DNA from: Thermoplasmatota archaeon
Lineage (GTDB): Archaea; Thermoplasmatota; Thermoplasmata; UBA10834
Assembly (NCBI GenBank): GCA_040751795.1
Contig: JBFMHR010000001.1
Location: 32,001-96,000 of the forward strand
Direction of reading: 5' to 3'
Length of the DNA: 64,000 nucleotides
A program made the translations under genes and the position numbers. The notes under the pieces are model-generated. The model was not told the origin of the DNA. It worked only from the letters and a program-made list of their open reading frames with translations, and ran no database searches. Below, piece after piece: positions 2,363 through 15,862 of this stretch; the first letter of the stretch is position 1; every line of letters starts with the position of its first letter.

Positions 2363-2366
2363 GCGG

Positions 2367-2975
2367 GTGAAGATGAGAGACGAGAGCAAGGTCCTTGACA
2401 TAGTGGGCGAGTTCGCCAACATAGGCGCCGGGAACGCGGCGACCGCCCTCGCGTCCCTGCTGGACATGGAGGTGGTCAACGAGGTCACCTCGTGCACCCT
2501 GCTCCCCCTGTCCAAGGTCGCGAACTGGCTCGGCGGCCCCGACCAGGTCGTCGCGGGCGTCTACACGAGGCTGTGCGGCGACCTCAAAGGCGGGGTGCTC
2601 GTCGTCCTGTCCCGCGACTCGGCGACCAACCTGATCCGCCACCTCACCAAGGAAGCCCCGGACCTCGCGAGGCTCACGGAGATGCAGGGCTCGGCCCTGA
2701 GGGAGATCGGGAACATATGCCTCTGCTGGTACCTGGTCGCGGTCTCCAAGATGATAGACAGCGACCTCATCCCCGCGCCCCCCGACGCGACGGTCGACCT
2801 CCTCGGCGCGGTCCTCGACCTGCCCCTGGCTGACGCGGGAGTGAAGGTCGACAAGGTCATCGCGGTCCACACGGTCTTCAAGAGCTTCGAGAAGGCGTTC
2901 GACGGGTACTTCCTGCTCCTCCCAGAGGAGCAGATGCTCGACGTGATACTGGAGAAGATGGGAGACGGCAGATGA
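2367..2975 (+). CDS. cheC: Chemotaxis phosphatase CheC
   Basis: Two ExxNI motifs (GEFANIGAGNAATAL, ALREIGNI); che operon context. Confidence 0.92.
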   Translation: MKMRDESKVLDIVGEFANIGAGNAATALASLLDMEVVNEVTSCTLLPLSKVANWLGGPDQVVAGVYTRLCGDLKGGVLVVLSRDSATNLIRHLTKEAPDLARLTEMQGSALREIGNICLCWYLVAVSKMIDSDLIPAPPDATVDLLGAVLDLPLADAGVKVDKVIAVHTVFKSFEKAFDGYFLLLPEEQMLDVILEKMGDGR

Positions 2976-3448
2976 ACGAGCCCGTGCTCGTTGGCATTGC
3001 GCAGATAGTCGTCGCGAGGGCGCCGGAGCGGATATGCTGCATGGGCCTCGGCTCGTGCGTGGCCGTCTTCCTGTACGACCCCATGGGACGGATAGGCGGG
3101 GTCGTCCACGCCCTCCTCCCCAGGGCCCCGCGCGACGCGAAGGTGCGCGGGAAGTACGCCGACACCGCCGTGAAGGCCCTGCTCGAAGAGATGCTCTCGA
3201 AGGGCGCCAGGAGGGACCAGCTGAGGGCCAAGCTCGTCGGCGGGGCGCAGATGTTCCCCAACCTCAACATCAGGGTGGCGGACATAGGCAAAGAGAACGT
3301 CGAGGAGGCGAAGAAGGCCCTGAAGGGCCTTGGGATCAGGCTCGCGGCCGAGGACACCCACGGGACAAGGGGCCGTTCGGCCACGTTCGACCTCGAGAAC
3401 GGCAGGGTGTCCATAAGCACCGCTTTCTCTGACAGCCACTTCATATGA
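2972..3448 (+). CDS. cheD: Chemoreceptor glutamine deamidase CheD
   Basis: GLGSCVAVFLYD, HALLP, KYAD, AKLVGGAQMF motifs. Confidence 0.95.
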   Translation: MNEPVLVGIAQIVVARAPERICCMGLGSCVAVFLYDPMGRIGGVVHALLPRAPRDAKVRGKYADTAVKALLEEMLSKGARRDQLRAKLVGGAQMFPNLNIRVADIGKENVEEAKKALKGLGIRLAAEDTHGTRGRSATFDLENGRVSISTAFSDSHFI

Positions 3449-3493
3449 GCAGGTTCAGAAGGCTTTAGTAGGAGAAGAGTCCTAGTCGCTATC

Positions 3494-3815
3494 GCCAGGA
3501 GAAGGCGGATGGCCGACGGTAGGCCCGTTCTCAGAACGGGCCGGCTGAGGAAAGTCCCCTCTCCAAGAGAAGGTGGGCCGCCAGAGCGGCAGGGCGAGAG
3601 TCCTGGCAAGGGCACAGAAACGGCACAGCCTCGGGATAACGTGATGATTCCCCTGGGGATGAAGTCTCCCGAGGACATGGTGAAACGGCGACACCCCACC
3701 GGAGCAAGCTCAAACGGCCGAACGATCTCTCATCGACGGCGGGTAGAGTGCAATAGTCGGATGCCATCACCGTCGCAAGACGGGAACAGAAAGGGGCTTA
3801 TGTCCTTCACCTGGC
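3494..3815 (+). ncRNA. rnpB: Archaeal RNase P RNA (type A)
   Basis: P1 GCCAGGAGAAGG (3494-3505) pairs with CCTTCACCTGGC (3804-3815); conserved GAGGAAAGTCC (3547-3557), ACAGAAAC, TGAAACGG, GGAGCAAG and AACAGAAAGGGGCTTA; P3 GGCCCGTTC/GAACGGGCC; P8 and P9 hairpins present. Confidence 0.95.
3790..3815 (+). repeat. attL: 26-bp direct repeat AAAGGGGCTTATGTCCTTCACCTGGC (3' end of rnpB)
   Basis: Identical to 15070-15095. Confidence 0.95.
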
Positions 3816-3822
3816 TCTTATA

Positions 3823-3834
3823 CCTTTATAAAGG
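3823..3834. promoter_or_regulatory. Palindromic TATA-like element CCTTTATAAAGG just inside attL
   Basis: Perfect 12-bp palindrome containing TTTATAAA upstream of the first cargo gene. Confidence 0.4.
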
Positions 3835-3955
3835 GTATATGACAGAATGCACTTTCTGTCTCTCCCCGCATGGTCCTCCAGGGATTGCTCCGGCAATGGG
3901 AGGTCATACCCACCACAACAAAGTTTTACATGGCTTCTGAAGCATTTCCAAGTGG

Positions 3956-4588
3956 ATGCCGGGCAATCATGGAGAGATAAAGGCGGAGTTTCCGATATTC
4001 GCAGCCATGGATAAGGAAACCACCATGCTGAACCTATTCAGATTCGAAATGCGGAAGACTCGTCTGCAGTTCAAGAGAGTGAGCGATGACCTTGATGAAA
4101 GGAAAGCGACTTCAGGTTCAGCATTGACCAGAGAGGAAAATGCCAACAGTCAGGCGAAGCTCTTCGCTGACATTCACTTTCTACTAACATGTCTGAGTCG
4201 GCTCGGATCACTCTTCTACAGGATGAAAGGCTACTTTCCTGAGAACTCCAAACTGAGCGAAGTCGAGACTCGTGTCCGAAAGCGTCTTGATTTCTTCGGT
4301 GAAATCAGGAATGACTTGGAGCATGTGGAGGACAGGCCAGGCAAAGGAGTCAACATCCTTGGTAGCACCTTTGGCTCTGTCTTTCAATTCGATGACAAGC
4401 AGATAGATGTCGGCAGTCATCTCAGAGATGAGATCGAGACTTTCTTCACTGAAGTGGAATCGATATATGACCGAATATTAGTCGAGAGACGGAAATCGTT
4501 GGGACAGAAAACCGTACTGTATAGAACAGGCATAACAATACCCGGGAGCCCAGAAAATCCTCATTCATTCGATGAGACAAAGAATTAA
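3956..4588 (+). CDS. Putative HEPN-domain ribonuclease
   Basis: Helical-looking protein with R-x4-H motif (IRNDLEHV). Confidence 0.55.
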   Translation: MPGNHGEIKAEFPIFAAMDKETTMLNLFRFEMRKTRLQFKRVSDDLDERKATSGSALTREENANSQAKLFADIHFLLTCLSRLGSLFYRMKGYFPENSKLSEVETRVRKRLDFFGEIRNDLEHVEDRPGKGVNILGSTFGSVFQFDDKQIDVGSHLRDEIETFFTEVESIYDRILVERRKSLGQKTVLYRTGITIPGSPENPHSFDETKN

Positions 4589-4631
4589 GGCGTCATCGCC
4601 CCGATGGATGAGTAGCGTCTGATTTTCAGGC

Positions 4632-5384
4632 CTATCTGCTTCTGGAGATGATGCCTCTCTTCTCTAATTCATCCAGATACTCATCCATTCCAGGCAAGTG
4701 TCCCAACGCCTCTGCCCAATCAAGGACAGACTTCGAATTGAGCTCCAATATCATGTCCCCCGGTGTGAGGAATAGGACCCTTTCAGGATCTGTCATGAAT
4801 CCCAATTCGAGAAGGTCCGCTCTCACCTCATCTTCGTACACCCAATGGAGATCATCTTCGATTCTCCGTATCTTGCCGAGCTGTTGGCCTATCTCATGAA
4901 TATCGAGACCTGCATAGTATGGGCTGTTATCGTTCAGCATTCTCACAATGAGATCTCGCAGAGGCCCATTCTGGAAGACCCGTATCTTCTGATGCTTGGG
5001 AGAACGATATGCCCGTCTCATTGCATCTCTAAGCCATCTTACTGCCGAGTCAAATTCCTTCTTTCCTGCATTAGGCGACAGTAGCGGGCATGGAGCATCC
5101 GGTGTCGAGAATATCATCAGACAGAGGTTCATGGCTTCCTCCTTTGACATTCTTCTCAGAGGTTTGTGATGATTGGGGCCTCGTACCTTCTCATAAGTGA
5201 TATGTGGTGCGAATCCTTCGTCATCACTGACAATACTCAAGTGGATGCCAATCGTGCCATCCGTTGATTCATCTCCCAGGGCCTTTACGAACGACTCCAC
5301 ATCGCTACACCACCGGAAAAGTATCCTGAATCGGATCAAGCCGTTGTCCTGAATCAGCACCTTGCGGAGTCGCTTCTTGGACAC
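4632..5384 (-). CDS. Hypothetical protein (250 aa)
   Basis: Long ORF in the low-GC island; no recognised motif. Confidence 0.7.
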   Translation of the reverse strand: MSKKRLRKVLIQDNGLIRFRILFRWCSDVESFVKALGDESTDGTIGIHLSIVSDDEGFAPHITYEKVRGPNHHKPLRRMSKEEAMNLCLMIFSTPDAPCPLLSPNAGKKEFDSAVRWLRDAMRRAYRSPKHQKIRVFQNGPLRDLIVRMLNDNSPYYAGLDIHEIGQQLGKIRRIEDDLHWVYEDEVRADLLELGFMTDPERVLFLTPGDMILELNSKSVLDWAEALGHLPGMDEYLDELEKRGIISRSR

Positions 5385-5492
5385 CGAATCTCATCTCCGA
5401 ATCATGGCATTATACCTCGGCCCATGGTTTCACTCTTCCCTCATGGCAAGCATGTGAATCCGAAACGAAACCTCAGTGACAATGGGAGCCAT

Positions 5493-5651
5493 TCAGACAT
5501 GCCGCTTCTTCTCTTTGGAATCTGGAGCGTCTTTCTCAGAGGCGCCAAGTTGTACGGTAGTTGTCCCCACCTGCACTCCAGCTTTATCCCAGTCCCCAAG
5601 GTCCGGCTTATCCCGTCTTCTGCTCTTGTCTTCTCGCTTCTTCTCTGTCAT
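5493..5651 (-). CDS. Small charged peptide 2 (52 aa, DWD...VGT motif)
   Basis: MTEKKREDKSRRRDKPDLGDWDKAGVQVGTTTVQLG...; purine-rich RBS-like GAAGGGAG upstream. Confidence 0.5.
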   Translation of the reverse strand: MTEKKREDKSRRRDKPDLGDWDKAGVQVGTTTVQLGASEKDAPDSKEKKRHV

Positions 5652-5690
5652 GCGAGCACAACTCCCTTCAGTCACCATCCGAGTTCAGAC

Positions 5691-5822
5691 TCATTTGTCT
5701 GTCTTCTCCTTCTTGTGCTCCTTCTTGATGCTCTCAAGCGTGATTGTCCCCACATCCTTGCTGTCCCAATCTCTCATGTCTCGTTTCTGGCCTCTCCTCT
5801 TATTCTGATCCTCCTCACCCAT
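5691..5822 (-). CDS. Small charged peptide 1 (43 aa, DWD...VGT motif; below ORF-track cutoff)
   Basis: Hand translation MGEEDQNKRRGQKRDMRDWDSKDVGTITLESIKKEHKKEKTDK*; starts 4 nt after the upstream stop. Confidence 0.5.
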   Translation of the reverse strand: MGEEDQNKRRGQKRDMRDWDSKDVGTITLESIKKEHKKEKTDK

Positions 5823-5826
5823 TCAA

Positions 5827-7029
5827 TCATCCCCATATCCTGTCCAGATTCCATACCACAACTAGCACTAATCCAATGAGAAAGGCAATGAACATGCCCT
5901 TGGCAAACCAAGCCTTGAAGACATTCTGACGATGATTATGCAAGAAGGAGTCATAGAGTTTCCTCGATATGATCATCTCATAATCCCTTGGTTCCCCTTT
6001 GCGATAGATGTCAATAATCTCCCCTATGTCAGCTCCACCTTTGAACTCCCTCACGAAGAATGCAATTACACCGAGAAAGGCAGCGACAAGAAGTGAGATC
6101 ACCCCGAGAATTCCGAAGTGTCCAACATAGCTACCCGAATCTAGATCCGCAACAGGTTCTGTCAGGGATACGATAAGGCCGAGGGACACAAAAACAAATC
6201 CCAGCATGACGCCTGTCTTGGAATCCAGTGACTCACAGTTCCGACTCTCCTGGTCAAACTGCCTCTGTATTTCGCCTGTGATAATCGAAAAGTCGTTCTT
6301 GCTGGCAGCACTGTTAGACTCGTCCATACCCTTGACCTCCTGATGTGATGAGCCGCAATCAGCAATGGGCATCTGCTCAACGGAACCCTCCTCCCGATTT
6401 CTAGGAGAATCTAGACCCAATGTACTGACAAGAGAGCTCTTGAATTTCCCAGATAGATTCATTTGGCGCCAGAAAAGGAAGTAGTACACCGCTAGAGTTG
6501 TGATTGCCGCAATCACTATGATTACTCCCCTTACACTCGCATCAACATCTATGGATCCGATTGCGATACCGAGCACAATCACCCACATGAAGTAGAATCC
6601 GGAGATGAGAATGTGAAGCACTATGCTGCTGGGAATTCCTTTGACTTGAGGACGAAAAGCTGAGTCCCCTTCCTGCCAGACTGCACACTCCTCCCGCATA
6701 GTGACCGCTCTCTGAAGCCACAGTGCTCTGTGAATCCACTCTATCTCATATCTCTGTGCTCTAAGGATTATCAAGAACCAGGCAGTTGAGATGAACATGC
6801 CTAGAACAGATAGCGCCATGATTATCATTGCCCACTCGGGGTGGTTTAGTGCACTCACGGCTGCCACGATCAAGACACCATTTGTAGCTGAATGGAGTGC
6901 ATTCGTGGACCAAGTCGTTGAGTCTTGACCTCTCTCCATAGCGTTCAATTGAGATAGTTGGTCCATCCCAAATCTGCCTGTGCCACTAGTCTTATCATGT
7001 ATCTTCTCCACAGCAGGAGCCCCTGGCAT
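5827..7029 (-). CDS. Multi-pass membrane protein, apparently two joined TM modules
   Basis: Several hydrophobic helices; start at 7029 with GGAGGAGG SD; internal GGAGGT SD plus ATG at 6327 (MDESN...). Confidence 0.75.
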   Translation of the reverse strand: MPGAPAVEKIHDKTSGTGRFGMDQLSQLNAMERGQDSTTWSTNALHSATNGVLIVAAVSALNHPEWAMIIMALSVLGMFISTAWFLIILRAQRYEIEWIHRALWLQRAVTMREECAVWQEGDSAFRPQVKGIPSSIVLHILISGFYFMWVIVLGIAIGSIDVDASVRGVIIVIAAITTLAVYYFLFWRQMNLSGKFKSSLVSTLGLDSPRNREEGSVEQMPIADCGSSHQEVKGMDESNSAASKNDFSIITGEIQRQFDQESRNCESLDSKTGVMLGFVFVSLGLIVSLTEPVADLDSGSYVGHFGILGVISLLVAAFLGVIAFFVREFKGGADIGEIIDIYRKGEPRDYEMIISRKLYDSFLHNHRQNVFKAWFAKGMFIAFLIGLVLVVVWNLDRIWG

Positions 7030-7033
7030 CAGG

Positions 7034-7783
7034 TCAGCCTCCTCCGGCAAATCTAACGCTAAATGCTTCACAGATCGCCTTCACGAATGAATGATAGTGC
7101 AACGGGCTCCCCAGCTGGGGGGCTGGTGGCTCACTCACCAGCTTAGCCGAATGTCCCTTCACATTGTCGTAGTCAACGACAATGACTCCGACTGCGTCGA
7201 TCTCATTAGGTTTGCTAGGCGATGGGCCAGTCTTCGAGGCTCTAGGCAAATCCTCAAACAGCTTCACTGTCTCTGTGACTAGTCGTTCAATGTTTGCATG
7301 CATTGTTGTCTCTCCAGCTCTAAGAGGCGACATGAAGCTTGCAGACATGTTCACGACAACGAGCCCACCAACAATCGTCCGTGGATTTGACATGTGGAGG
7401 ATACTTGAGAAGGAATTCAGGTCCCTCTGTCTATTCCTTCTCGCTTTTCCGTGTTCCGTCATGATTGTCTTCGCATCTACTGCCACCCACAACTCATCGG
7501 GAGGAGCACAGATTGACTCCCCCTCGCCGCCAGGCACCCTTTGCGCATCTCGGGAAGTGGGTCCGATGGCAAGGTCAATGTTCCAGCCTAATGGCACCCC
7601 CAACCCAGGCGGTTGGTTCTGGTTATAGCAGATTCTCCCCTTTGCAGCCATTTCTGCAAAAGCAGGGCATGAAGCCATCATATCCTCCAAGAGGAGCTCG
7701 CAGAGTCGGTCGCCATGCTTCGATGATCTTGGGTGATAACCGTTTGACTCCAGATACCGCACGAATTCTCTGTCCGCCTTCAA
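7034..7783 (-). CDS. Putative type II restriction endonuclease (PD-(D/E)xK)
   Basis: NIDLAIG...VAVDAK motif; directly downstream of a DNA methyltransferase. Confidence 0.6.
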   Translation of the reverse strand: MKADREFVRYLESNGYHPRSSKHGDRLCELLLEDMMASCPAFAEMAAKGRICYNQNQPPGLGVPLGWNIDLAIGPTSRDAQRVPGGEGESICAPPDELWVAVDAKTIMTEHGKARRNRQRDLNSFSSILHMSNPRTIVGGLVVVNMSASFMSPLRAGETTMHANIERLVTETVKLFEDLPRASKTGPSPSKPNEIDAVGVIVVDYDNVKGHSAKLVSEPPAPQLGSPLHYHSFVKAICEAFSVRFAGGG

Positions 7784-7847
7784 CTCCAGACCACTCTGCG
7801 GATGTAAGGCCTAGGTAGTATGTTAATTTTCGGCAGAGAAGGATGTC

Positions 7848-8816
7848 CTATTTCTTGGTGATGGATAGCCTGCGGTTCATCTGCAGGGTGCCTATTTCAT
7901 TCCTGATGCGCTTCTCGGCCAGTCGAAGATAGTCGCTGTCAATCTCGAAGCCTACGCTATTCCTGCCAGTCTTCATTGCCGCGAGATTGGTTGTCCCTGT
8001 CCCCGTGAACGGATCGAGGACGGTGTCTCCCGCGAAACTGAACATGCGTATGAGCCTCAGAGGTATCTCAAGAGGAAACGGAGCCGGGTGTTTTGCAGTG
8101 CTCTCCCCCGGAACATCCGCCCATATCTGCTGGAACCAAACTCTATGTTTGTCAGCAGGGACTATGCTCAGCAATCGAGTCTTGGTATCAGGCTTGCGAT
8201 ACGATCCCGGCTTCCTCTCCATAAGTATGAATTCAACATCATTCTTCACCACACCCCCGGGCTCGTAGGGCTTACCGAGGAAGCCTGCCCCATTCCCTTC
8301 AGCCTCGAAGGCTGCATTCGCAATCTTGTACCAGAATATCGGAGCTAGATTGTCAAAACCTAGCTTCCTGCAGTGGCCTTGAATGTCGGCATGCAGTGGG
8401 AAAACTTGGTGTCGCCCATGCTTCCTGCGGCTCAGGCAGACGTCGCCGACGACAATAATCAACCTCCCGCCTTCCACGAGGACTCTGTGGCATTCTGCCC
8501 ACACCTTGTCGAGTTCCTTCAAGAAGTCCTCGTAATCGGTAACATAGCCAAGTTGTCCCTCGGTTATGTTGTACTTCTTCAGAGTCCAGTATGGGGGGGA
8601 GGTTACTACTAGGTGTACAGACTCATCCTCTACGCCTTTCAGATTCCTAGCATCGCCTTGAATAAGCCTATGTTCGGTCGGCAGACTAGCTATCTCCTCT
8701 TCAACGGCGGACAGGAAGGCAGAATCCTTACTCGCCTTAGGTATGAACATATCTGCCTGCCTGGGAGTCATGCTAGATGGCAGATTGAAAGACTTGGACA
8801 GTTCGTCCACAGACAT
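7848..8816 (-). CDS. Beta-class N4-C/N6-A DNA methyltransferase (start uncertain, ORF open to 8912)
   Basis: VTSPPYW (motif IV) precedes HPAPFP and DPFTGTGTT (motif I). Confidence 0.92.
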   Translation of the reverse strand: MSVDELSKSFNLPSSMTPRQADMFIPKASKDSAFLSAVEEEIASLPTEHRLIQGDARNLKGVEDESVHLVVTSPPYWTLKKYNITEGQLGYVTDYEDFLKELDKVWAECHRVLVEGGRLIIVVGDVCLSRRKHGRHQVFPLHADIQGHCRKLGFDNLAPIFWYKIANAAFEAEGNGAGFLGKPYEPGGVVKNDVEFILMERKPGSYRKPDTKTRLLSIVPADKHRVWFQQIWADVPGESTAKHPAPFPLEIPLRLIRMFSFAGDTVLDPFTGTGTTNLAAMKTGRNSVGFEIDSDYLRLAEKRIRNEIGTLQMNRRLSITKK

Positions 8817-8884
8817 TTCGATGGACCAATTGCCAGAGCACGTACTTGAACTGTTCGCAGAGGTCTCCGGAAATGCTCCTTTGC

Positions 8885-10039
8885 CTAGTAATAGCCCGGA
8901 GTCATGCGCCATGACGTGCTACCCTCCTTCATAGAACGGTGTTCGACAAGGGAGACGAGCCTTTCGAGCTTCTCATCAGAAATCTCCCCATTAAGGTACT
9001 TCAGGAGGATCATATCTCTGATGCGGTCTGATCTCTCAGGCCCCTCATCTATCGACTCGGCACCGAATCCTGCGTCCTCCTCGGGCAGGGCTCTCTGAGA
9101 CACGCTTGCGGACTCACCACCAAATGCCCTGTCATACGCTTGTCTCCTGCTCTTTTCACTCAAATGCGTGTATCTCTGCACATCGTCCAGACTCTTATGC
9201 CTTGACTGAGCCTGAATGAAGGATGCAGACAGCCCGCTCTCGGCCATATGTGTGATCATGCTGTGCCTGAAGATGTGGGGATGGACGTTCTTCTCGATTC
9301 CTGCTCGAAATGCCGTCTTCTTCACCATCATCCAGAGATTCCTCCTTGTCATTGGCCTCCTGCCCTCTGTGAGGAATACATAGTCTTCGTACCCGCTCTC
9401 TGGCGCTGGCCTACCCGCTTTAAGGTATCTTGCTACGGCTTGGACGGCCTCATCTGAGAGATTGACGAAGGAGTAATCCTTCCCCTTTCCCGCATGTACT
9501 CTGAGGCGCTTCTTGTCGAGATCAAGATTGGCGACCCTCACGCCGATGGCTTCACTAGCCCTTAGCCCACCATAGTACATCAAGCAGATGAGGGCATAAT
9601 CTCTCAACGAGGTGTCTCTCTCGGCCTGGAACCCATTCTCCCCGATCTTCGACCTCTTCGCTTCGTCAAGCACCCGCCTGACTTCTTCCTCTGTCAGAGG
9701 AACCTTCTCCTTCTCAACCTGCTTCGGGAGTTTCATCCTAAGGTCATGGCGCTCGATAACCTGCGATGTATAGCAGTTTACGGCTGCAAGCATGCTACAC
9801 ATGGTATTCTCACAGTATTTCTCTGCCAGGTGAGCCTTCCATGCCTGCATGTCGGCCTTCTGAAGCTCTAGAACGGGCTTTCCGATGAATTCTAGGCACA
9901 ATCTCAGACTCCGAGTGTACGAGGTCGCAGTAGCCTCTGTACGCTTCTCTGCCCTCAGAAATGCCTCGAATCGTTCAACCTGCTCCTGAACCTGCTGCTC
10001 AGTGTTCACACACCCTAGAGACTGCTCTCTCGTACTCAA
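8885..10039 (-). CDS. Tyrosine recombinase / integrase (XerC/D-like)
   Basis: GLRASE, GKGK, HIFRHS and H...QRY catalytic residues; N-terminal SAM-like region; GGTGA SD before TTG start. Confidence 0.95.
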   Translation of the reverse strand: MSTREQSLGCVNTEQQVQEQVERFEAFLRAEKRTEATATSYTRSLRLCLEFIGKPVLELQKADMQAWKAHLAEKYCENTMCSMLAAVNCYTSQVIERHDLRMKLPKQVEKEKVPLTEEEVRRVLDEAKRSKIGENGFQAERDTSLRDYALICLMYYGGLRASEAIGVRVANLDLDKKRLRVHAGKGKDYSFVNLSDEAVQAVARYLKAGRPAPESGYEDYVFLTEGRRPMTRRNLWMMVKKTAFRAGIEKNVHPHIFRHSMITHMAESGLSASFIQAQSRHKSLDDVQRYTHLSEKSRRQAYDRAFGGESASVSQRALPEEDAGFGAESIDEGPERSDRIRDMILLKYLNGEISDEKLERLVSLVEHRSMKEGSTSWRMTPGYY

Positions 10040-10154
10040 GCTGCTTCACCGAGCCTGAGAATGCAGTCCCTGACAATAAAGGTTTTCGAGGCAGGCAGGC
10101 AAAGCTCCCAAAAGCCCTTTGGTGAAGCAGCTATTGAGTACAATACCTGCCTGC
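10032..10154 (-). promoter_or_regulatory. Structured integrase leader (anti-SD/start hairpin plus interleaved second helix)
   Basis: GTACTCAAGCTGCTTCACC (10032-10050) complementary to GGTGAAGCAGC-TA-TTGAGTAC (10121-10141); GCAGGCAGG (10091-10099) complementary to CCTGCCTGC (10146-10154). Confidence 0.65.
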
Positions 10155-10202
10155 TATCCCGACGAGGCACCAAAGAGGAACAGGGTTGATATATGTTCCG
10201 AA

Positions 10203-10466
10203 TCAGGTGTCATCGCCCCCCTTCCCCTGGAACTTGCCCTCGATAGCCATTCGGACATGCCTTGCAGACAATCGGGCTTTACGCCTCTCCCCCAATTGAG
10301 CTCTAAGGAAGTTCTCCCTATCATGGATCGAAGACGCTCTGACAGCGATGGAGATTGCCTCATTCTCGAGGTGAGATTTGAGAGTTTCAACGGCCGCGCG
10401 CTCAATCTTCCGTTCTGGAGCCTTCTGTCCCAAGAGCATCCGGACGGACCGGAGGGAGATGGTCAT
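10203..10466 (-). CDS. Divergent histone-fold protein
   Basis: ISLRSVRMLL-APERKIERAAVETLKSHLENEAISIAVRAS...RKARLSARHVRMAI follows the archaeal HMf pattern (a1-L1-a2-L2-a3) with an insertion at the end of a2. Confidence 0.7.
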   Translation of the reverse strand: MTISLRSVRMLLGQKAPERKIERAAVETLKSHLENEAISIAVRASSIHDRENFLRAQLGERRKARLSARHVRMAIEGKFQGKGGDDT

Positions 10467-10753
10467 GAGCCCTCCTGCTGTTCAGCATCCAGTTGCGACT
10501 CCCGATTCTCGATCTTTGGGAGGAACCTCTCAAACTCCTTCCCTTTGCGCCACCGCCACTGCGTCTGTTCGTTTATCAACCCTCGAACCCGGGAAAGCCT
10601 GTAGTATGAATCTGCGGTTCGCCGATCAATGCCCAACCCCGCATCAACAACCACCTCTTGCCAGTCATTTCGACCATAGTAACGACTGTCATCACAGCAG
10701 AGGTGGATTGTCTTCGCAAGGGCCTCCAGTTTCTTGGCTTCATTTTTGACCAT
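10463..10753 (-). CDS. Small putative wHTH DNA-binding protein
   Basis: GIDRRTADSYYRLSRVRGLI resembles a recognition helix plus wing; ATGA overlap with the histone gene. Confidence 0.55.
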   Translation of the reverse strand: MVKNEAKKLEALAKTIHLCCDDSRYYGRNDWQEVVVDAGLGIDRRTADSYYRLSRVRGLINEQTQWRWRKGKEFERFLPKIENRESQLDAEQQEGS

Positions 10754-10778
10754 AGGCCACCCCCGCCGCATGCTTATG

Positions 10779-10902
10779 TGTGTGTGAGTGTGCAACTAAG
10801 AGAGAAGGACCTCTCTCAAGACAATACATATTATACGACATCACAGATAGAAATCTGTTCAGAGAAGGGATTCTCTCTAGGGCGTGCACACACTCACACA
10901 CA
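10779..10902. repeat. Nested inverted-repeat array (origin/operator-like)
   Basis: TGTGTGTGAGTGTG (10779-10792) / CACACTCACACACA (10889-10902) enclosing two AGAGA..TCTCT hairpins, ACAGAT/ATCTGT and an AT-rich core. Confidence 0.8.
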
Positions 10903-10982
10903 ATCCTGATAACACCCCTAGGAGCCCTTCCATTGTCTCCGATCCTGACTTCCTTCGAGTACATCCCATCCCTCCTAGTGTA

Positions 10983-11354
10983 TCACTTCGTCGTCTTGAC
11001 CTCCCGAAACAATCTCGCTGGGAGCTGGTCAATTGGGTCAACCGTTATGCTAGGAAACTCAGAAATCACCGACTCCCTGCTTATCAATGGCTCATGTTGC
11101 TCCTTATACCAGCAACTCTCGCAGAGTCCTCGGTGGGCAAGGGCAATCAATTGGGAAGGTCCTCTTTGGCCTGATGGGAGTCTTGGGGTCTTGTCAGTAC
11201 CTGCTAATGTAAACCCCGCTCGTTCTCTCGCCAGAAGCTCAAGAACCACAAATCTGAGGAGACCTGATAGACTCTCATACCCTCGAGAGGCCTGTATTTG
11301 CCCGAGCGCTGCTGCATCTTCATCGTCTAGTCTGAAAGAGATAGACCTACTCAC
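10983..11354 (-). CDS. Ribbon-helix-helix (CopG-like) protein
   Basis: N-terminal SISFRLDDED...GYESLSGLLRFVV RHH pattern. Confidence 0.7.
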   Translation of the reverse strand: MSRSISFRLDDEDAAALGQIQASRGYESLSGLLRFVVLELLARERAGFTLAGTDKTPRLPSGQRGPSQLIALAHRGLCESCWYKEQHEPLISRESVISEFPSITVDPIDQLPARLFREVKTTK

Positions 11355-11849
11355 CTGACTCCTTCCTGCCCTCAGCTCTACCCAGAGTCCTTCAGAGCCG
11401 CAGCAGGTTCAAGGAGGTTCAACATCGGAGGAGAGAATTCCGATAGACTCTAGGTTATCTGCCAAATCGACTACCGAGATTAAGGTCTTTTCGCTACCGG
11501 GGTTCTGCCGAGGATCTTCAAGACTCTGTATTGAAGAGTCTGTATTACGCGTGCATTCAAGCACGTATACGGAAATCTGCCGACAAATGCTCTTGCCGAC
11601 AATCGAAAAGGCCAGGATTATCGGCGGCGGACAGGGGATACCTTCAAAACCCTATGAAGAGAGAGAGAAGAGAGAGACATAGTCTCTCTCCACGAGCGTG
11701 CGAGGGCTGCCGAGGATTGACTTCCGACTTTCAGCTGGCAGTCGGAAGCAATCACGGTGATTCCGCCTGTCCATGGGCGAGACCTCATTCAAGCCAAATC
11801 ACGGGAAACAGAAAGAGAGATATGCGAAGACATCTGTACTCGGCAATGG

Positions 11850-12413
11850 ATGGAATCTGGGGGACCTGCGCCGAATCAGGACGATTGGCGCGAGTATCAG
11901 GCTCTTGAGGCGAGAATCCAGAATGATTCTAGGGTAGCATATGCGATTCTGGCAGCTTCATTGACTTCATCGTTAGCCTTAGCAGGTCTGCTACTGGTCT
12001 ATATCGATCCTGGGCAAGACCTAATCAGATTTCTGATCATCGCAGCCCTTGCACTCTTCATACTTAAATTCGGCACGGTGATTCAGAATCGATTCAACGA
12101 CACAGCAAGTATCAGAATCGCCAGGGCAGTGCAGCTGGAACGGAATCTGAGAATACACAGTTTCAGATCTTTTCCGCCCTGGTACGAATTTCCCGGAGGC
12201 GACTACTTCAAGATTCTTGGAGAATACGCCAGTAATTCCCGATCCGATGGCACTCCATCCTCTGATGCGTATTTCACATATTTGGGCCAAAGAGAATACG
12301 AACGTATAATCCGCGGATTGCGAATCCGTATTTACGTCTCATGGTTCGGATATGCAGTGATCTTAGCTCTGATTGCATCCGGAATTATTCTTGCTCTGGT
12401 GAACACTCAGTAG
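11850..12413 (+). CDS. Membrane protein (about 3 TM)
   Basis: Hydrophobic segments; IARAVQLE resembles IHRALWLQ of the 5827-7029 N-terminal module; start uncertain (ORF open from 11757). Confidence 0.7.
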   Translation: MESGGPAPNQDDWREYQALEARIQNDSRVAYAILAASLTSSLALAGLLLVYIDPGQDLIRFLIIAALALFILKFGTVIQNRFNDTASIRIARAVQLERNLRIHSFRSFPPWYEFPGGDYFKILGEYASNSRSDGTPSSDAYFTYLGQREYERIIRGLRIRIYVSWFGYAVILALIASGIILALVNTQ

Positions 12414-12526
12414 CAGTGACAAGAGAACCCGGCTGCGGAAACATGATAGGGATTAGTCGATGAAGGCTATAGGGGTAGAGGAAAGCCCTTAAGCCATCGC
12501 AAATGATTTGGATATTGGGAAAGGAA

Positions 12527-13051
12527 ATGGCAGATAAGTTCTTGGTTTTCGTCAGCCACTCCGCCAAAGATAAGCATCAACTCGAATTGATAAGAGGCGC
12601 AATCAGAGGGACTGGTGCGCGACCATATGTTGCCGAGGAGAATGTGACGCCAGGTGCGAAACTGTCAACAAAGATACGCAACAAGATTGAAGAATGTGAT
12701 GTATTCCTGCTAATCCTTACGGAGAACAGTGCAGCATCTGCCTATGTAAATCAAGAGATTGGATACGCGCTCGGCCTTGAGAAATTCGTGCTGCCTATAG
12801 TGATCGGGGATACTTGTCCCCAGAACCTCTGCTCCGATATTGAGTACATACGAATCGATCCGGAACGCCCTTCTTCATCTATTCGCACTGTCCGAGCAAT
12901 CATAAAAGCCAAGAAGAACGAAACTGAACTTGAGCAACTTGTCAAGATTGGCGCCCTCACCCTAGGGACCATAGCTTGGCTCAAGTACGGCCCTCAGATT
13001 AAGGAAACCGCATCTAGGTGGTGGCAGAATTTGAACAGACCATTACCATGA
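12527..13051 (+). CDS. TIR-domain protein with C-terminal hydrophobic helix
   Basis: VFVSHSAKD, CDVFLLILTENS, SAYVNQEIGYA (catalytic Glu present). Confidence 0.9.
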   Translation: MADKFLVFVSHSAKDKHQLELIRGAIRGTGARPYVAEENVTPGAKLSTKIRNKIEECDVFLLILTENSAASAYVNQEIGYALGLEKFVLPIVIGDTCPQNLCSDIEYIRIDPERPSSSIRTVRAIIKAKKNETELEQLVKIGALTLGTIAWLKYGPQIKETASRWWQNLNRPLP

Positions 13052-13116
13052 GAAGAAGCGATAGTGGCGAAGGGAAGCTCTTAAATCGTGCCTGGGGATT
13101 TCATAGGGTGATAGAC

Positions 13117-14292
13117 ATGAATGATTCCTCGACCCAAATGCTCATTCCTCTTCTCGCTGGAGGTGAAGATACCCTAGTCGAATTCAAATCTTTCCTTCCC
13201 AAGAACGAAGAAACTAAGCACAAAGTGGCCGAGGCCGCAACCGAGCTTGCCAACGCTGCAGCTCTTTGCGGGCATCCTAAGGCATTCCTGCTTCTCGGAG
13301 TCACAGATGATGGCAAGGTCGTTGGAGTGAAATGCCAAGAACGATACAAGAAGGAATTCAGAGAACTGATATCTGCCAAGTCTAATCCCCATGTGAGGGT
13401 TCTAGAGATTCATGAGATTGGAACCACGAGTCTATCGACCGACATCAAGTCTGAACCATGCGGCGAAGCAGTGTACGTCCTGGAAATTGCGCCTGCCTTG
13501 GATGGACCGATTCGATACTATAGGTCTAAAGATTCCAACGGAGTTCTATTGACAAGGGATGGCCCTCGAAAGCGGGACATGACCAACGAGGAATTGCGGC
13601 GGCTGTCCAGCGGGCCTGCCAGAACTCCGAAACTTTCACTCAGACTTCTGAACGATGAGGAACATGAAGTTGAATGCCTGGTCTTGAGACCGAAATTCTT
13701 GGTGAAGAAGAAGACCGAAGAGCCAAAGCCATACACTCCCACTCCTCAGCAGACAGCCTGGCTTGAGCAACTGAAGCGGCAGCCAAACATGCAACAGGTG
13801 ATGATACAGCAGGCATTGAGCACAAAAAGACTACTTGAGATGACAGAAACATGGAAGCCGTTTCTGACACAGGTTGAGAGAATCCCAGCTCCGAACACAT
13901 TTCCCACTCACTTCGCATTGTCGAATACCGGATCTGCACCAGCCGAGGATGTAAGGGTCACGATGAAGTTTCCTGAATGTTTTATGATTGAGGAGAAATC
14001 GGAGTATGAGCCACAGTCATATGGCATCCTTGCACATGTTCCATCAGTCACACCACCATTCAGCGGCGTATGGAAGAAAGACAGAGATGATCGGAATTGT
14101 GTGACTGCTGGCATTCGTGTCCAGAAACTAAGTAATGATGTCACAATTACTAGATTCGACCCAATTTTCGTGACTGTACCCAATGCCGAGAGAGAATACA
14201 GCATCGAAATCCGGATCACTGCCGACTATCAAGAACCTGTGCACCAGACTCTCACAATGATTATCAAGCCAATCATCGAAGAAGTCTCATAG
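13117..14292 (+). CDS. AlbA_2/Schlafen-domain protein with C-terminal beta-sandwich (start uncertain)
   Basis: GEDTLVEFKS, ELANA, LLLGVTDDGKVVGV; NTGSAPAEDVRV Ig-like motif. Confidence 0.85.
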   Translation: MNDSSTQMLIPLLAGGEDTLVEFKSFLPKNEETKHKVAEAATELANAAALCGHPKAFLLLGVTDDGKVVGVKCQERYKKEFRELISAKSNPHVRVLEIHEIGTTSLSTDIKSEPCGEAVYVLEIAPALDGPIRYYRSKDSNGVLLTRDGPRKRDMTNEELRRLSSGPARTPKLSLRLLNDEEHEVECLVLRPKFLVKKKTEEPKPYTPTPQQTAWLEQLKRQPNMQQVMIQQALSTKRLLEMTETWKPFLTQVERIPAPNTFPTHFALSNTGSAPAEDVRVTMKFPECFMIEEKSEYEPQSYGILAHVPSVTPPFSGVWKKDRDDRNCVTAGIRVQKLSNDVTITRFDPIFVTVPNAEREYSIEIRITADYQEPVHQTLTMIIKPIIEEVS

Positions 14293-14308
14293 GGGCGGAA
14301 GGGCATCC

Positions 14309-14992
14309 ATGAAAAGGATGAATGGACTTACAAGAAGGACGACAATCAACTACATTGAGATCGAGGTCTTGAGTGAGCGGCTATTTGACGAGGATACTCT
14401 CAAATCCTTTGCCCGTATTGCAGCTCAAATTGCCTCGAATGCAGGGACTGAAGAGGGGCGGCCGAGCAGTCGGTTCTGCATCGAATCCGTCAGAGAACCC
14501 ATCGCATTGATTGATGACATCATTGGAGGAGTCGGCATCAACCAGCTACTTGTTCCAACCGCTGATACCTACACGGGCCACTACCCAGTGAACGAAAGGC
14601 AGATTCACAGACCACTCCAGTATGCCCTCGTTGACCTGCTCACGAGCATCAGGTCGAGAGATACAATCCGGTATGGTTGCCAACACATCGAGGGCATCTT
14701 GAAGACCATGTTTGAGAATGAAATCCACGGAATTCATCGCAAACCTCTAGGACAAATCGTCAAAGACCTGAAGAAAAGGAGCATCCTGGGGAATGATCTT
14801 ATTCAACAACTTGAGAACCTCGTCACTATCATGAACATTGCCAAGCATGAACATGGCAATGATGCCATTAGAATACCAGACCCATTGCGCACAGTAGAAT
14901 CTCAAGTCTTCAACACCCACGAAGCAATCTCAATGTACTTCATATGCAGGAAGCTCGGAGTACTACTCCTAGCTGAATCTAGCACACCGTAA
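14309..14992 (+). CDS. Hypothetical protein, HEPN/Abi-like C-terminus
   Basis: HIEGILK...PLGQIV...MNIAKH pattern (canonical Arg absent). Confidence 0.5.
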   Translation: MKRMNGLTRRTTINYIEIEVLSERLFDEDTLKSFARIAAQIASNAGTEEGRPSSRFCIESVREPIALIDDIIGGVGINQLLVPTADTYTGHYPVNERQIHRPLQYALVDLLTSIRSRDTIRYGCQHIEGILKTMFENEIHGIHRKPLGQIVKDLKKRSILGNDLIQQLENLVTIMNIAKHEHGNDAIRIPDPLRTVESQVFNTHEAISMYFICRKLGVLLLAESSTP

Positions 14993-15069
14993 CGCTGATT
15001 TGCATCATTGAACGCAGAATATCAGCGTCTGCATGTATGTGCTCGATATGATCCAGACTGCAGGGTTTC

Positions 15070-15095
15070 AAAGGGGCTTATGTCCTTCACCTGGC
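15070..15095 (+). repeat. attR: duplicated rnpB 3' end
   Basis: Identical 26-mer to 3790-3815. Confidence 0.95.
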
Positions 15096-15241
15096 ACTTG
15101 CGCCCAGTGGAACCGGGGCAACACATACAGCTCTACGTTCCCAGCCCGTTACTCCGCGTTCCTCGTCATTCTTGACGGAGTATCACCCTGTCCGCCGAAA
15201 GGCTATTGAAGGACGCACTCATCCTAACATCGGTGTCTGCA

Positions 15242-15595
15242 ATGGGTGAAGATGTGCTTATCGTGCTGAACGATGCGCCTTACGGAACGGAGAAGGCCTA
15301 CAACGGACTGCGACTGGCCATAGCCTTGCAGGCGAGACAAAGCAACGTCCGGCTGTTCCTCATGGCGGACGCCGTCTCCGCAGGCATCCCGAACCAGGAG
15401 ACCCCGCCGGGGTACTACAACGTCAGCGAGATGCTCGGAAGGGTCCTCGCGAAGGGCGGGAAGGTGGCGGCCTGCGGGAGCTGCATGAAGGCGAGGGGGC
15501 TCAGGGTGGAAGGGCTCATCAAGGGCATCGAGCAGGGCTCGATGGCCCTGCTCTGCGAATGGACGCAGGAGTGCGGTAAGATCCACTCCTTCTGA
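15242..15595 (+). CDS. DsrE/YchN-family protein
   Basis: NDAPYGTEKAYNGLRLA, FLMADAV, CGSCMKARG. Confidence 0.88.
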   Translation: MGEDVLIVLNDAPYGTEKAYNGLRLAIALQARQSNVRLFLMADAVSAGIPNQETPPGYYNVSEMLGRVLAKGGKVAACGSCMKARGLRVEGLIKGIEQGSMALLCEWTQECGKIHSF

Positions 15596-15862
15596 CAGGC
15601 GGATACAGACTCGTTCCGGATCCATGTCGCCCGCGAGGTCCCTGCGATTCCGGAAGCATGGTGACACTCCCTCTGCTCATGGTCGAACCACGGAAAAGGC
15701 TTAATGAGGCCCCGCCTTTACAAGAGCAGGTGGTAGGAAATGGGTCGGATGACTGAGCTGGCTGCGCCACGGGAAGTCAGGGGCTCTGAGGCGATCATGG
15801 TAGCCCGCAATTACGACCGGAGGACCAGGGAATCACTCTCGCGGGCATCGACACTGCGCCGG

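Follow-up and report, generated by a model that had tools for sequence, protein, structure and literature searches.

The RNase P RNA gene and the block that follows it

The window, the whole stretch of 64,000 nucleotides analysed here, contains an RNase P RNA gene whose final 26 nt recur further downstream, at the far side of a block of foreign-looking composition. The features of this region are listed below.

3494–3815, + strand: RNase P RNA gene (rnpB), intact, type A archaeal (RF00373 plus P1 pairing)
3790–3815, + strand: attL core, the final 26 nt of rnpB (P4 3' strand and P1 3' strand), an exact copy of 15070–15095
3816–3955, no strand: non-coding left arm, with a 12-bp TATA-like palindrome (3823–3834) and a hairpin (3841–3860)
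3956–4588, + strand: ORF of 210 aa, without match in Pfam, PHROGs, PADLOC or NCBIfam
4632–5384, − strand: ORF of 250 aa, without match in the same four libraries
5827–7071, − strand: ORF of 414 aa, probable membrane protein (weak, sub-threshold match to 8xMP, E 1.3e-4)
7034–7783, − strand: ORF of 249 aa, candidate Type II restriction endonuclease (atlas and fold; no HMM match)
7848–8912, − strand: N6/N4 DNA methyltransferase, Type II (PF01555, E 2.1e-39; PADLOC MTase_II, E 9.3e-65)
8885–10039, − strand: Xer-like tyrosine integrase, ORF of 384 aa (PF00589, E 3.9e-38; SAM-like domain at the N-terminus)
10463–11354, − strand: three small ORFs of 110, 74 and 123 aa (from the ORF list; no family match)
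11531–12413, + strand: two overlapping ORFs of 125 and 218 aa, uncharacterised
12503–13051, + strand: TIR-domain protein, ThsB-like (PF13676, E 1.1e-17; PADLOC ThsB, E 2.4e-12)
13018–14292, + strand: Schlafen/AlbA_2-domain protein, overlapping the TIR gene (PF04326, E 1.6e-11)
14309–14992, + strand: ORF of 227 aa, without match in Pfam, PHROGs, PADLOC or NCBIfam
14993–15069, no strand: non-coding right arm, its last ~45 nt conserved in other insertions
15070–15095, + strand: attR core, a displaced repeat of the end of rnpB, followed by dsrE (15206–15595), as in genome G007

An earlier note, made from the DNA letters, had proposed an unannotated but intact rnpB at 3494–3815, and the covariance model bears this out. 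The archaeal RNase P family of Rfam (RF00373) matches 3497–3812 on the forward strand with 182.4 bits against a gathering score of 84 (E 1.5e-52). The match spans model positions 1–288 of 288 and is thus not truncated, and pairing of 3494–3505 with 3804–3815 extends helix P1 to the full bounds of the gene. RF00373 is the only Rfam family that reaches threshold in the 64-kb window.

The recurrence of the rnpB end was likewise found as described. The copies at 3790–3815 and 15070–15095 differ by 0 mismatches and are spaced 11,280 bp apart. They are the only two in the whole 2.05-Mb assembly of 53 contigs. A third copy was not found in the window at up to three mismatches, and 0 of 100 shuffles gave any match. 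The 26-mer holds two 3' strands of the ribozyme, those of P4 (3793–3799, complementary to 3552–3559) and P1. Within the order the core is ~99% identical, and invariant in the full-length rnpB genes read, against ~89% for the remainder of rnpB; this extreme conservation follows from its being P4 and P1 of an essential ribozyme.

Between the copies lies a block of 11,254 bp (3816–15069) with a GC content of 0.500, compared with 0.658 in the left flank and 0.642 in the window minus the element. The lower GC that the earlier note had pointed out begins and ends sharply at the repeats. A tandem array was considered and rejected, since no core-like remnant lies in the block at up to eight mismatches, and the block is accordingly a single unit. 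The arms of the hairpin in the left arm resemble sequence at the left edge of the core. Repeats of at least 8 nt common to the two arms of the window element, which would be candidate binding sites, were not found.

The integrase

The tyrosine integrase reported in the block is clearly recognizable, with a PF00589 match of 131.4 bits (cut-off 27.1), and it is the sole PF00589 match there. A 374-aa form of the protein is present in a public collection. Among 60 members of the integrase clade, R150, K175, H245, R248 and Y280 do not vary, and the conservation of H271 is 90% or more. We take these residues to be the catalytic arginine, lysine, H-x-x-R pair, H/W position and tyrosine nucleophile, and judged by this conservation the enzyme is apparently active. 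The ORF is intact and sits ~5 kb from both junctions, whereas the usual place is beside the att site. An SSV-type integrase, the gene of which is split by integration, was therefore rejected.

The integrase was also rejected as the chromosomal XerA. It scores 163.6 bits against the XerA equivalog (NCBIfam NF040815), for which the cut-off is 220, and its clade is present in only 5 of the 49 genomes of the order. A separate and better XerA candidate was found on another contig (G000, C12). In each of 11 genomes checked there is a PF00589 hit of ~135–144 bits separate from the clade, which is likely to be XerA.

Cargo genes

Pfam names only the integrase, the methylase, the TIR protein and the Schlafen/AlbA_2 protein in the block, plus the one weak 8xMP match. 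The start of the methylase gene overlaps the stop of the integrase gene, which suggests that the two form an operon. For the 249-aa ORF, the closest clusters in the atlas carry the name 'putative Restriction endonuclease' (0.94), and the fold resembles a PaeR7I/XhoI cluster (TM 0.63); as a lead from these predictions, it may be the restriction partner of the methylase. For the 414-aa ORF there are atlas leads only, to 8xMP and PycTM-like clusters. The three small ORFs at 10463–11354 are possible regulators.

None of the ten unexplained ORFs of the block matches PHROGs, and no virion or packaging genes were found in the block with Pfam and PHROGs, libraries that novel archaeal virus proteins could escape. 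A clade alignment scan of IMG/VR returned only generic Xer-like integrases of at most 33% identity and no member of the clade. A provirus was rejected on these grounds, and the block is a defence-type island with no recognizable virus.

Recurrence at the rnpB end of related genomes

At least two copies of the 26-mer occur in 11 of the 49 genomes of the order, with a range of 1–4 copies per genome, and a reversed-pattern control gave 0 in all 49. Every copy is either an rnpB end or an island junction. The 26-mer was therefore rejected as a dispersed repeat, a reading that would have undone the proposal of the earlier note.

Empty sites were found in the same genus. In G004, rnpB and its flank are uninterrupted and can be aligned with the sequence on either side of the insertions found in G005 and G006; the aligned blocks overlap in the core, and the inserts measured against this site are 4,741 bp (G005) and 3,674 bp (G006). 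G004 is also empty relative to the insertion in G010. The junction expected for the window itself, rnpB joined directly to dsrE, occurs in no relative; in G018 dsrE sits elsewhere, and in G001 and G002 it is found on a different contig. The empty-site prediction thus holds for the insertions of relatives, though not for the window's own junction.

The occupants of the site are diverse. Unrelated tyrosine recombinases lie 36 nt after rnpB in G012 and near an isolated core in G020. Inserts without a recombinase occur in G006, in G021 (the C56 insert) and in G002, where a mini-element measures 0.88 kb, and arrays with three to four cores are found in G012, G021 and G048. Across the elements, arms of ~50 nt are shared and the cargo is unrelated. 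The first 33 nt of the window's left arm match the stretch that follows the isolated core of G020 at 97% identity, and the stretch that follows rnpB of G002 at 88%. The last ~45 nt of its right arm, ending CTGCAGGGTTTC at 15058–15069, are kept at the right ends of the insertions in G005, G017, G024 and G014. The rnpB end is a hotspot for several unrelated integrase lineages and for integrase-less remnants.

A recombinase 7.7 kb from the isolated core of G014 was rejected as an element integrase; its PF00589 score of 135 bits places it in the one-per-genome XerA class. In G017, a 36-kb case, the rnpB 3' end reads N. Beyond the order, a second copy of the rnpB 3' end was found in none of G033, G031, G040 and G038; the scan is uninformative for G028, G030, G035 and G036, the own rnpB of which mismatches the window's 26-mer. 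G039 contains dispersed copies of other parts of rnpB, a different phenomenon.

Link between the integrase clade and the rnpB end

The earlier note had asked whether homologues of the integrase also adjoin rnpB 3' duplications, and they do at 5 of the 10 loci of the clade, in three different architectures. Besides the window, the core is present at L053, L056, L059 and L060. L053 encodes a homologue of full length and 51% identity; it lies 0.9 kb from the 3' end of rnpB and is convergent with it, as in the window. L056, which is the insertion in G005, has a C-terminal integrase fragment within the insert. At L059 the rnpB end, the integrase and a second core follow each other within 2.8 kb, and at L060 a 25-mer lies 78 nt past the integrase stop. 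The core is absent from the available DNA of the other five loci, two of which (L055 and L057) could be read for 10 kb downstream of the gene.

The clade integrase is missing from 9 of the 11 genomes with duplicated cores, being present only in G000 and G005. The site is consequently not exclusive to this enzyme, and some inserts lack a recombinase altogether. The proposal that the integrase uses a conserved segment of rnpB as attB is thus supported as regards use of the site, though not for this integrase alone, and its own catalysis of this insertion is probable.

Search for free or circular forms

A single sequencing run, which contains 7% of the sampled words, yielded only short contigs. 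They fall on rnpB, on dsrE and on parts of the methylase/integrase region and show no joint spanning the element; one unitig ends exactly at 3815. Four true members of the integrase clade were found among the 80 loci kept from metagenome contigs. Terminal overlap, the mark of a circle, was seen in 0 of 5 small contigs, four from metagenomes and one from a genome collection. An exact-match scan of viral contigs did not find the 26-mer, and deposited phages and plasmids gave only distant Xer-type matches of <30% identity.

Origin of the insertion

The block at 3816–15069 is very probably an integrative element inserted at the 3' end of rnpB, most probably by its own integrase. The element would carry a copy of the rnpB 3' segment, and recombination would leave rnpB ending in the same sequence (attL, 3790–3815), with the second copy at the far junction (attR, 15070–15095). 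The recombinase would most probably be the element's own Xer-derived tyrosine integrase (8885–10039). The rnpB end lends itself to landing because the 3' strands of P4 and P1 are encoded there and the ribozyme is essential, so the target is unchanged across the whole order and present in every potential host. We infer that the resident integrase carried out this insertion, that strands were exchanged within the core and that the element is still able to excise.

As an alternative, integration at the rnpB end might be site-specific yet catalysed in trans by a recombinase of another element or lineage, the resident integrase being cargo or serving another site. The mid-element position of the integrase, the unrelated recombinases at the site in G012 and G020, the recombinase-free inserts of G006, G021 and G002 and the five clade loci without a core would all fit such a course of events. 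It is nevertheless unlikely, given that the core is present, in three architectures, at half of the clade loci for which there is any context, that the integrase is the only recombinase of the block, and that the window has its right arm in common with G005, where the insert includes a fragment of a clade integrase.

That the insert is a composite of at least two tandem elements, with the middle junction lost and the integrase derived from one half only, is a good deal less probable still. Gene orientation and GC skew do switch near 11.4 kb, the left arm resembles G020 and G002 while the right arm resembles G005, G017, G024 and G014, and arrays of three to four cores exist in G012, G021 and G048. 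Against this, the block contains neither arm motifs nor a core-like sequence at the tolerance given above (chance expectation 0.05), and mosaic arms are general among rnpB-end elements. Least credible of all is an artefact of the metagenome-assembled genome, in which a foreign contig was joined to the chromosome via the shared 26-mer. The assembly does comprise 53 contigs, the contigs of many relatives break at or in the core, and the unitig ending at 3815 could be read in the same way; yet both junctions lie inside one long contig, the arrangement is seen again in G005, G006 and G020, which were assembled independently into 1 to 10 contigs, and the arms are conserved across genomes. Insertion of a single element by its own integrase therefore stands as the preferred account.

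Significance

RNase P RNA is a new target for a known mechanism. A wider claim, for which we see about even chances, is that the rnpB end is a landing site of a kind hitherto undescribed in any domain of life, to which tyrosine integrases of at least three unrelated lineages have converged. Its occupants would be autonomous islands, remnants in decay, tandem arrays and mini-elements of under a kilobase that lack an integrase and retain just the two arms. If that is true, a mobile element provides the 3' end of the essential ribozyme in every occupied host. With the present case, RNase P RNA joins the very few structural RNA genes other than tRNA genes that serve as integration sites. The finding also bears on why integrases prefer RNA genes. 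The core is extremely conserved and has no tRNA-like hairpin symmetry, which favours an explanation by conserved targets over one by symmetric stem-loops.

Islands at rnpB would be invisible to finders anchored on tRNA and tmRNA genes, and finders that compare references would file them as intergenic. In the available excerpts of one resource paper, the only bins for islands are tRNA/tmRNA, protein-coding and intergenic (PMC12424338). The rnpB locus of uncultured Thermoplasmata is a handy spot for harvesting mobile elements and defence cargo, and the integrase together with its 26-bp site could serve as a genetic tool, of which this group has none.

Comparison with known systems

A full-text literature search, covering the main text of articles, turned up no mention of rnpB serving as an attachment site, in agreement with the earlier note, whose author knew of no such target in archaea. 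Integrases of the pNOB8 type in archaea remain intact on integration, whereas the SSV type has attP inside the gene, which is split; known pNOB8-type integrases target tRNA genes. Compared by description, the window integrase resembles the pNOB8 type, as its gene is uninterrupted after integration, with the att core located outside the gene. Its closest sequence relative is archaeal XerA, with the same two-domain layout (best PDB match 5hxy, E 1.4e-27; best NCBIfam model E 6.4e-48). It differs from XerA in a tail of ~90 aa after the catalytic tyrosine, in its score below the equivalog cut-off and in the restricted distribution of its clade.

Among non-tRNA targets, the closest parallel is phage phiEf11, whose integration site in Enterococcus faecalis is ffs, the gene for 4.5S/SRP RNA; this site was described as of a novel kind as recently as 2025 (PMC12540744). 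Both systems use as attB a structural RNA gene, other than a tRNA gene, that belongs to an essential ribonucleoprotein, and the identity segments are of similar length (27 nt in phiEf11). The phiEf11 system differs in being bacterial, in being a phage and in using another RNA. The integration of phiEf11 lies in the gene body, with at most 61 nt on the 5' side and at most 44 nt on the 3' side, and was confirmed by PCR (PMC12540744), whereas the rnpB element is known from comparison.

[quoted passage not shown] As in that class, the 3' part of an RNA gene forms the flanking direct repeat, the gene is kept whole by a segment supplied by the element, the integrase is encoded by the element, and the site is reused by many elements so that remnants and arrays gather there (PMC12424338). 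The window element differs from these islands in that its integrase lies mid-element, that its target is the RNase P RNA gene (RF00373) and no tRNA or tmRNA gene, and that its core, in place of a tRNA-like stem-loop, consists of one strand each from two long-range helices, P4 and P1.

RNase P RNA gene and its repeated 3' end

[quoted passage not shown] With the archaeal RNase P RNA covariance model of Rfam, window 3497–3812 (+) scored 182.4 bits (E 1.5e-52; gathering score 84 bits), covering 288 of 288 model positions without truncation, and this was the sole Rfam family detected within the 64-kb window. Three extra bases on each side pair mutually and extend the gene to 3494–3815, where the earlier note had placed it from the sequence. 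The last 26 nt of the gene (3790–3815, attL), here called the core, match 15070–15095 (attR) exactly, so the downstream recurrence claimed in that note also holds. No third copy was present in the window at up to three mismatches, matches occurred in 0 of 100 shuffles, and the entire 2.05-Mb assembly contains these two copies only. Inside the core, the strand 3793–3799 is complementary to 3552–3559, a pairing that forms helix P4 with its usual bulged U; the core also includes the 3' strand of P1.

Composition of the element

The 11,254 bp between the two core copies have a GC content of 0.500, against 0.658 in the left flank and 0.642 in the window minus the element. They contain just one of the eight PF00589 matches of the genome, in agreement with the lower-GC block carrying a tyrosine integrase that had been described there.

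Features of the element (window coordinates, strand)
5827–7071, −: 414-aa probable membrane protein
7034–7783, −: 249-aa putative restriction endonuclease; nearest atlas clusters so named, fold similar to a PaeR7I/XhoI cluster (TM 0.63)
7848–8912, −: N6/N4 DNA methyltransferase; PF01555 (E 2.1e-39), PADLOC Type II methyltransferase (E 9.3e-65)
8885–10039, −: tyrosine integrase; PF00589 (E 3.9e-38) and an N-terminal SAM-like domain
12503–13051, +: ThsB-like TIR protein
13018–14292, +: Schlafen/AlbA_2 protein, overlapping the TIR gene
after 13018–14292, within 12503–14992, +: 227-aa ORF without assigned function

The four minus-strand genes (5827–10039) apparently form one operon, in which the methylase gene begins before the integrase stop, so that the two overlap. 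The assignment of the 249-aa protein as a restriction endonuclease is a lead only; a restriction-modification module linked to the integrase (7034–10039) could stabilise the island. On the plus strand, the TIR and Schlafen/AlbA_2 genes overlap by 34 nt, and PADLOC recognises the TIR protein alone in 12503–14992; this archaeal island thus carries a candidate defence module there. PHROGs gave no match for 10 element ORFs without a Pfam family, and when the integrase and nine ORFs lacking a Pfam family were compared with NCBIfam, the integrase alone was matched. No virion, packaging or replication genes were recognised in the element, and by content it is a defence island. Inside the block there is neither a core-like sequence, with up to eight mismatches allowed (0.05 expected by chance), nor a copy of the motifs in its non-coding ends (arms); the element is therefore one unit.

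The left flank of the repeats carries cheC and cheD, which are syntenic with rnpB across the family, and the right flank carries dsrE and a gene for a PKD-repeat protein. The first 2.4 kb right of attR (15096–17500), comprising dsrE and the start of the 1054-aa PKD-repeat protein, has an intermediate GC content, 0.60 versus 0.64. In related genomes dsrE is 220 kb from rnpB (G018) or on separate contigs from it (G001, G002). Since the right flank lies away from rnpB in other genera, it may be rearranged or old island material.

Recurrence and precise insertion in the order

The core was present, at up to two mismatches, in 33 of 49 genomes of the order; the reversed pattern, used as a control, gave 0 matches in all 49. 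It is identical in every readable full-length rnpB of the order, even where the gene is only 77–79% identical to that of the window; across the rnpB alignment, identity is about 99% in the terminal segment versus about 89% in the remainder. At least two core copies were found in 11 genomes: two in the window's own genome (G000) and in G003, G005, G006, G010, G014, G020 and G058, three in G021 and G048, and four in G012. A second core follows rnpB on the same contig at 4.7 kb in G005, 3.7 kb in G006 and 5.3 kb in G021. Outside the order, no duplicated rnpB 3' end occurred in four informative genomes (G033, G031, G040 and G038). Repeats in the complete genome of a member of a different family (G039:C1, rnpB at 401643–402023) were rejected as a 3'-end duplication: an internal rnpB segment of about 50 nt recurs at four further places and the first 39 nt of the query (three upstream nt and the first 36 nt of rnpB) at two, and these are a dispersed small repeat on both strands that overlaps rnpB.

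Direct comparison with an empty site was possible for sister elements. G004, of the same genus as G005 and G006, has one core copy. Its locus aligned with that of G005 in two blocks (1–2447 with 831–3277, and 2414–3562 with 8011–9152) and likewise with that of G006 (1–2442 with 499–2940, and 2415–3570 with 6613–7767). In both cases the left and right blocks overlap exactly in the core, as expected of precise insertions; the inserts measure 4,741 bp (G005) and 3,674 bp (G006). The G004 locus also aligns with the flank beyond the isolated core (a copy apart from rnpB) of G010. The empty-site relatives called for in the earlier note were accordingly found for the sister insertions, but not in the form in which rnpB is joined to dsrE: no empty allele of the window's own rnpB–dsrE junction was found among the relatives. 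The right junction of G007 is the same as that of the window, a 25-mer followed by dsrE (82% identity), with a different element arm before the 25-mer; therefore, different elements have occupied one chromosomal junction.

Many assemblies (rnpB loci of G001, G003, G011, G013, G012 and G002) break at or inside the core, and some are entirely without it. Therefore, rnpB may often be missing or truncated in metagenome-assembled genomes of this group through these elements. In G017 (contig C1, locus L037) the rnpB 3' end is a run of N, and a core with two mismatches lies 36 kb downstream of rnpB, preceded by a window-type right arm. The one-contig genome G020 (G020:C1, 1153652–1172131 and 1640925–1641246) carries rnpB and an isolated core in inverted orientation and 469 kb apart. 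Left-arm sequence follows both, and the isolated core is preceded, at a distance of 18.4 kb, by an rnpB-like piece (positions 222–298), a layout that hints at rearrangement between att sites.

Element arms and core boundaries

The last ~45 nt of the right arm, before the isolated core, are conserved in the window, G005, G017, G024 and G014, the latter four sharing their final 12 nt with window 15058–15069; a different right arm is common to G006 and G007. The left arm, ~50 nt after the core, is of two types, one in G005, G060, G003 and G024 and the other in the window, G020 and G002. Both contain a TATA-like palindrome and then a stretch similar to the core's left edge. Besides arms and integrase pieces, the elements have almost nothing in common in their cargo. 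Position 1 of the 26-mer is C, G or T in eight isolated cores and position 2 is changed in two; therefore, the identity that matters begins at about position 2–3.

The integrase clade and its association with rnpB

The closest solved relative of the window integrase is the archaeal XerA (5hxy, E 1.4e-27), and among NCBIfam models it scores best with the XerA equivalog, at 163.6 bits, below the cut-off of 220. A separate PF00589 match on contig 12 of the same genome (143.5 bits) is a better XerA candidate, and ten checked relatives each have one XerA-like match of ~135–141 bits. In a 5.8-billion-protein collection, 87 proteins (35–100% identity) fall at E 1e-57 or better, and generic Xer-like proteins begin beyond them at ~1e-23, which delimits a tight clade. 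R150, K175, H245, R248 and Y280 are invariant in a 60-member clade alignment, and H271 is conserved in at least 90%. A tail of ~90 residues beyond the catalytic tyrosine (window 8885–9150) is conserved in the clade; no Pfam family covers this tail, and XerA and XerD lack it. The clade was not found in IMG/VR (best match 33% identity), nor among deposited phages and plasmids, where all matches were below 30% identity.

The expectation that homologues would also adjoin rnpB 3' duplications was examined at ten clade loci from the window, relatives and metagenome contigs (window, L053–L057 and L058–L061), and the core was present at five. Besides the window, these are L053, where a full-length homologue (51% identity) ends 0.9 kb away from the end of an RF00373 gene (3' end to 3' end), convergent as in the window, on a contig that stops before any second core could appear; L056, the G005 place, with a C-terminal integrase fragment (48% identity) within the 4.7-kb insert; L059, a 3-kb contig bearing the rnpB 3' part, core, integrase frame and a second core (one mismatch) 70 nt past the stop; and L060, with the 25-mer 78 nt past the integrase stop. 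The available DNA of the other five has no core. The contig of L054 stops within the integrase gene, L055 and L057 have none in 10 kb downstream on contigs that begin within the gene, and L058 and L061 have none in downstream DNA of just 0.47 and 0.2 kb. Five of 49 genomes of the order carry the clade, three of them at rnpB (G000, G060 and G005); in G001 and G022 both clade integrase and rnpB are at contig ends.

Other recombinases at the site

More than one integrase uses the rnpB 3' end. In G012 (L015 1859–3136, G012:C92), a 426-aa frame (PF00589, 50.3 bits), ~20% identical to the window integrase, begins 36 nt past the rnpB 3' end; the four cores of this genome are spread over three contigs and are probably an array. 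A third type, a 468-aa recombinase, lies ~5 kb from the isolated core of G020. No recombinase was found in the inserts of G006 and G021 (contig C56) or near the known cores of G003, G010, G017, G048 and G058. In G002 (G002:C31, L005) an insert of ~0.88 kb within the 891 nt downstream of rnpB (GC 0.495 versus 0.616) is without an integrase and consists of little more than two arms, the left one of the window type and the right one of the G006/G007 type; at the edge of the contig it continues into a second core. This mini-element may be a non-autonomous derivative.

Proposed mechanism and comparison with known systems

A circular form of the element would carry right arm, core and left arm. The window integrase presumably catalyses the reaction, pairing the element site with the identical rnpB end, and strand exchange would take place within the 25–26 bp. 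The rnpB sequence would thereby be kept and the displaced core would go to the far junction, where it could decay, as mismatches in the isolated copies indicate; the element may still be mobile at present. Because the P4 and P1 strands are conserved, any host in the order offers the site. The element's anatomy, its recurrence, the precise empty sites of sister elements, the link between integrase and site and the common arms are all shown; the catalytic role of this integrase, the place of crossover and mobility today are inferred.

Searches of full texts, mostly from non-subscription journals, gave no report of integration at rnpB, although it may be listed in a table elsewhere. The ffs gene was reported as a novel integration site in 2025, in an article that gives tRNA/tmRNA and csRNA as the known non-coding RNA targets (PMC12540744). 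The site bins of the TIGER/Islander resource are tRNA/tmRNA, protein-coding and intergenic only (PMC12424338). [quoted passage not shown] The kind of system, an island in an RNA gene, is known, and rnpB as its target is new with respect to the literature searched.
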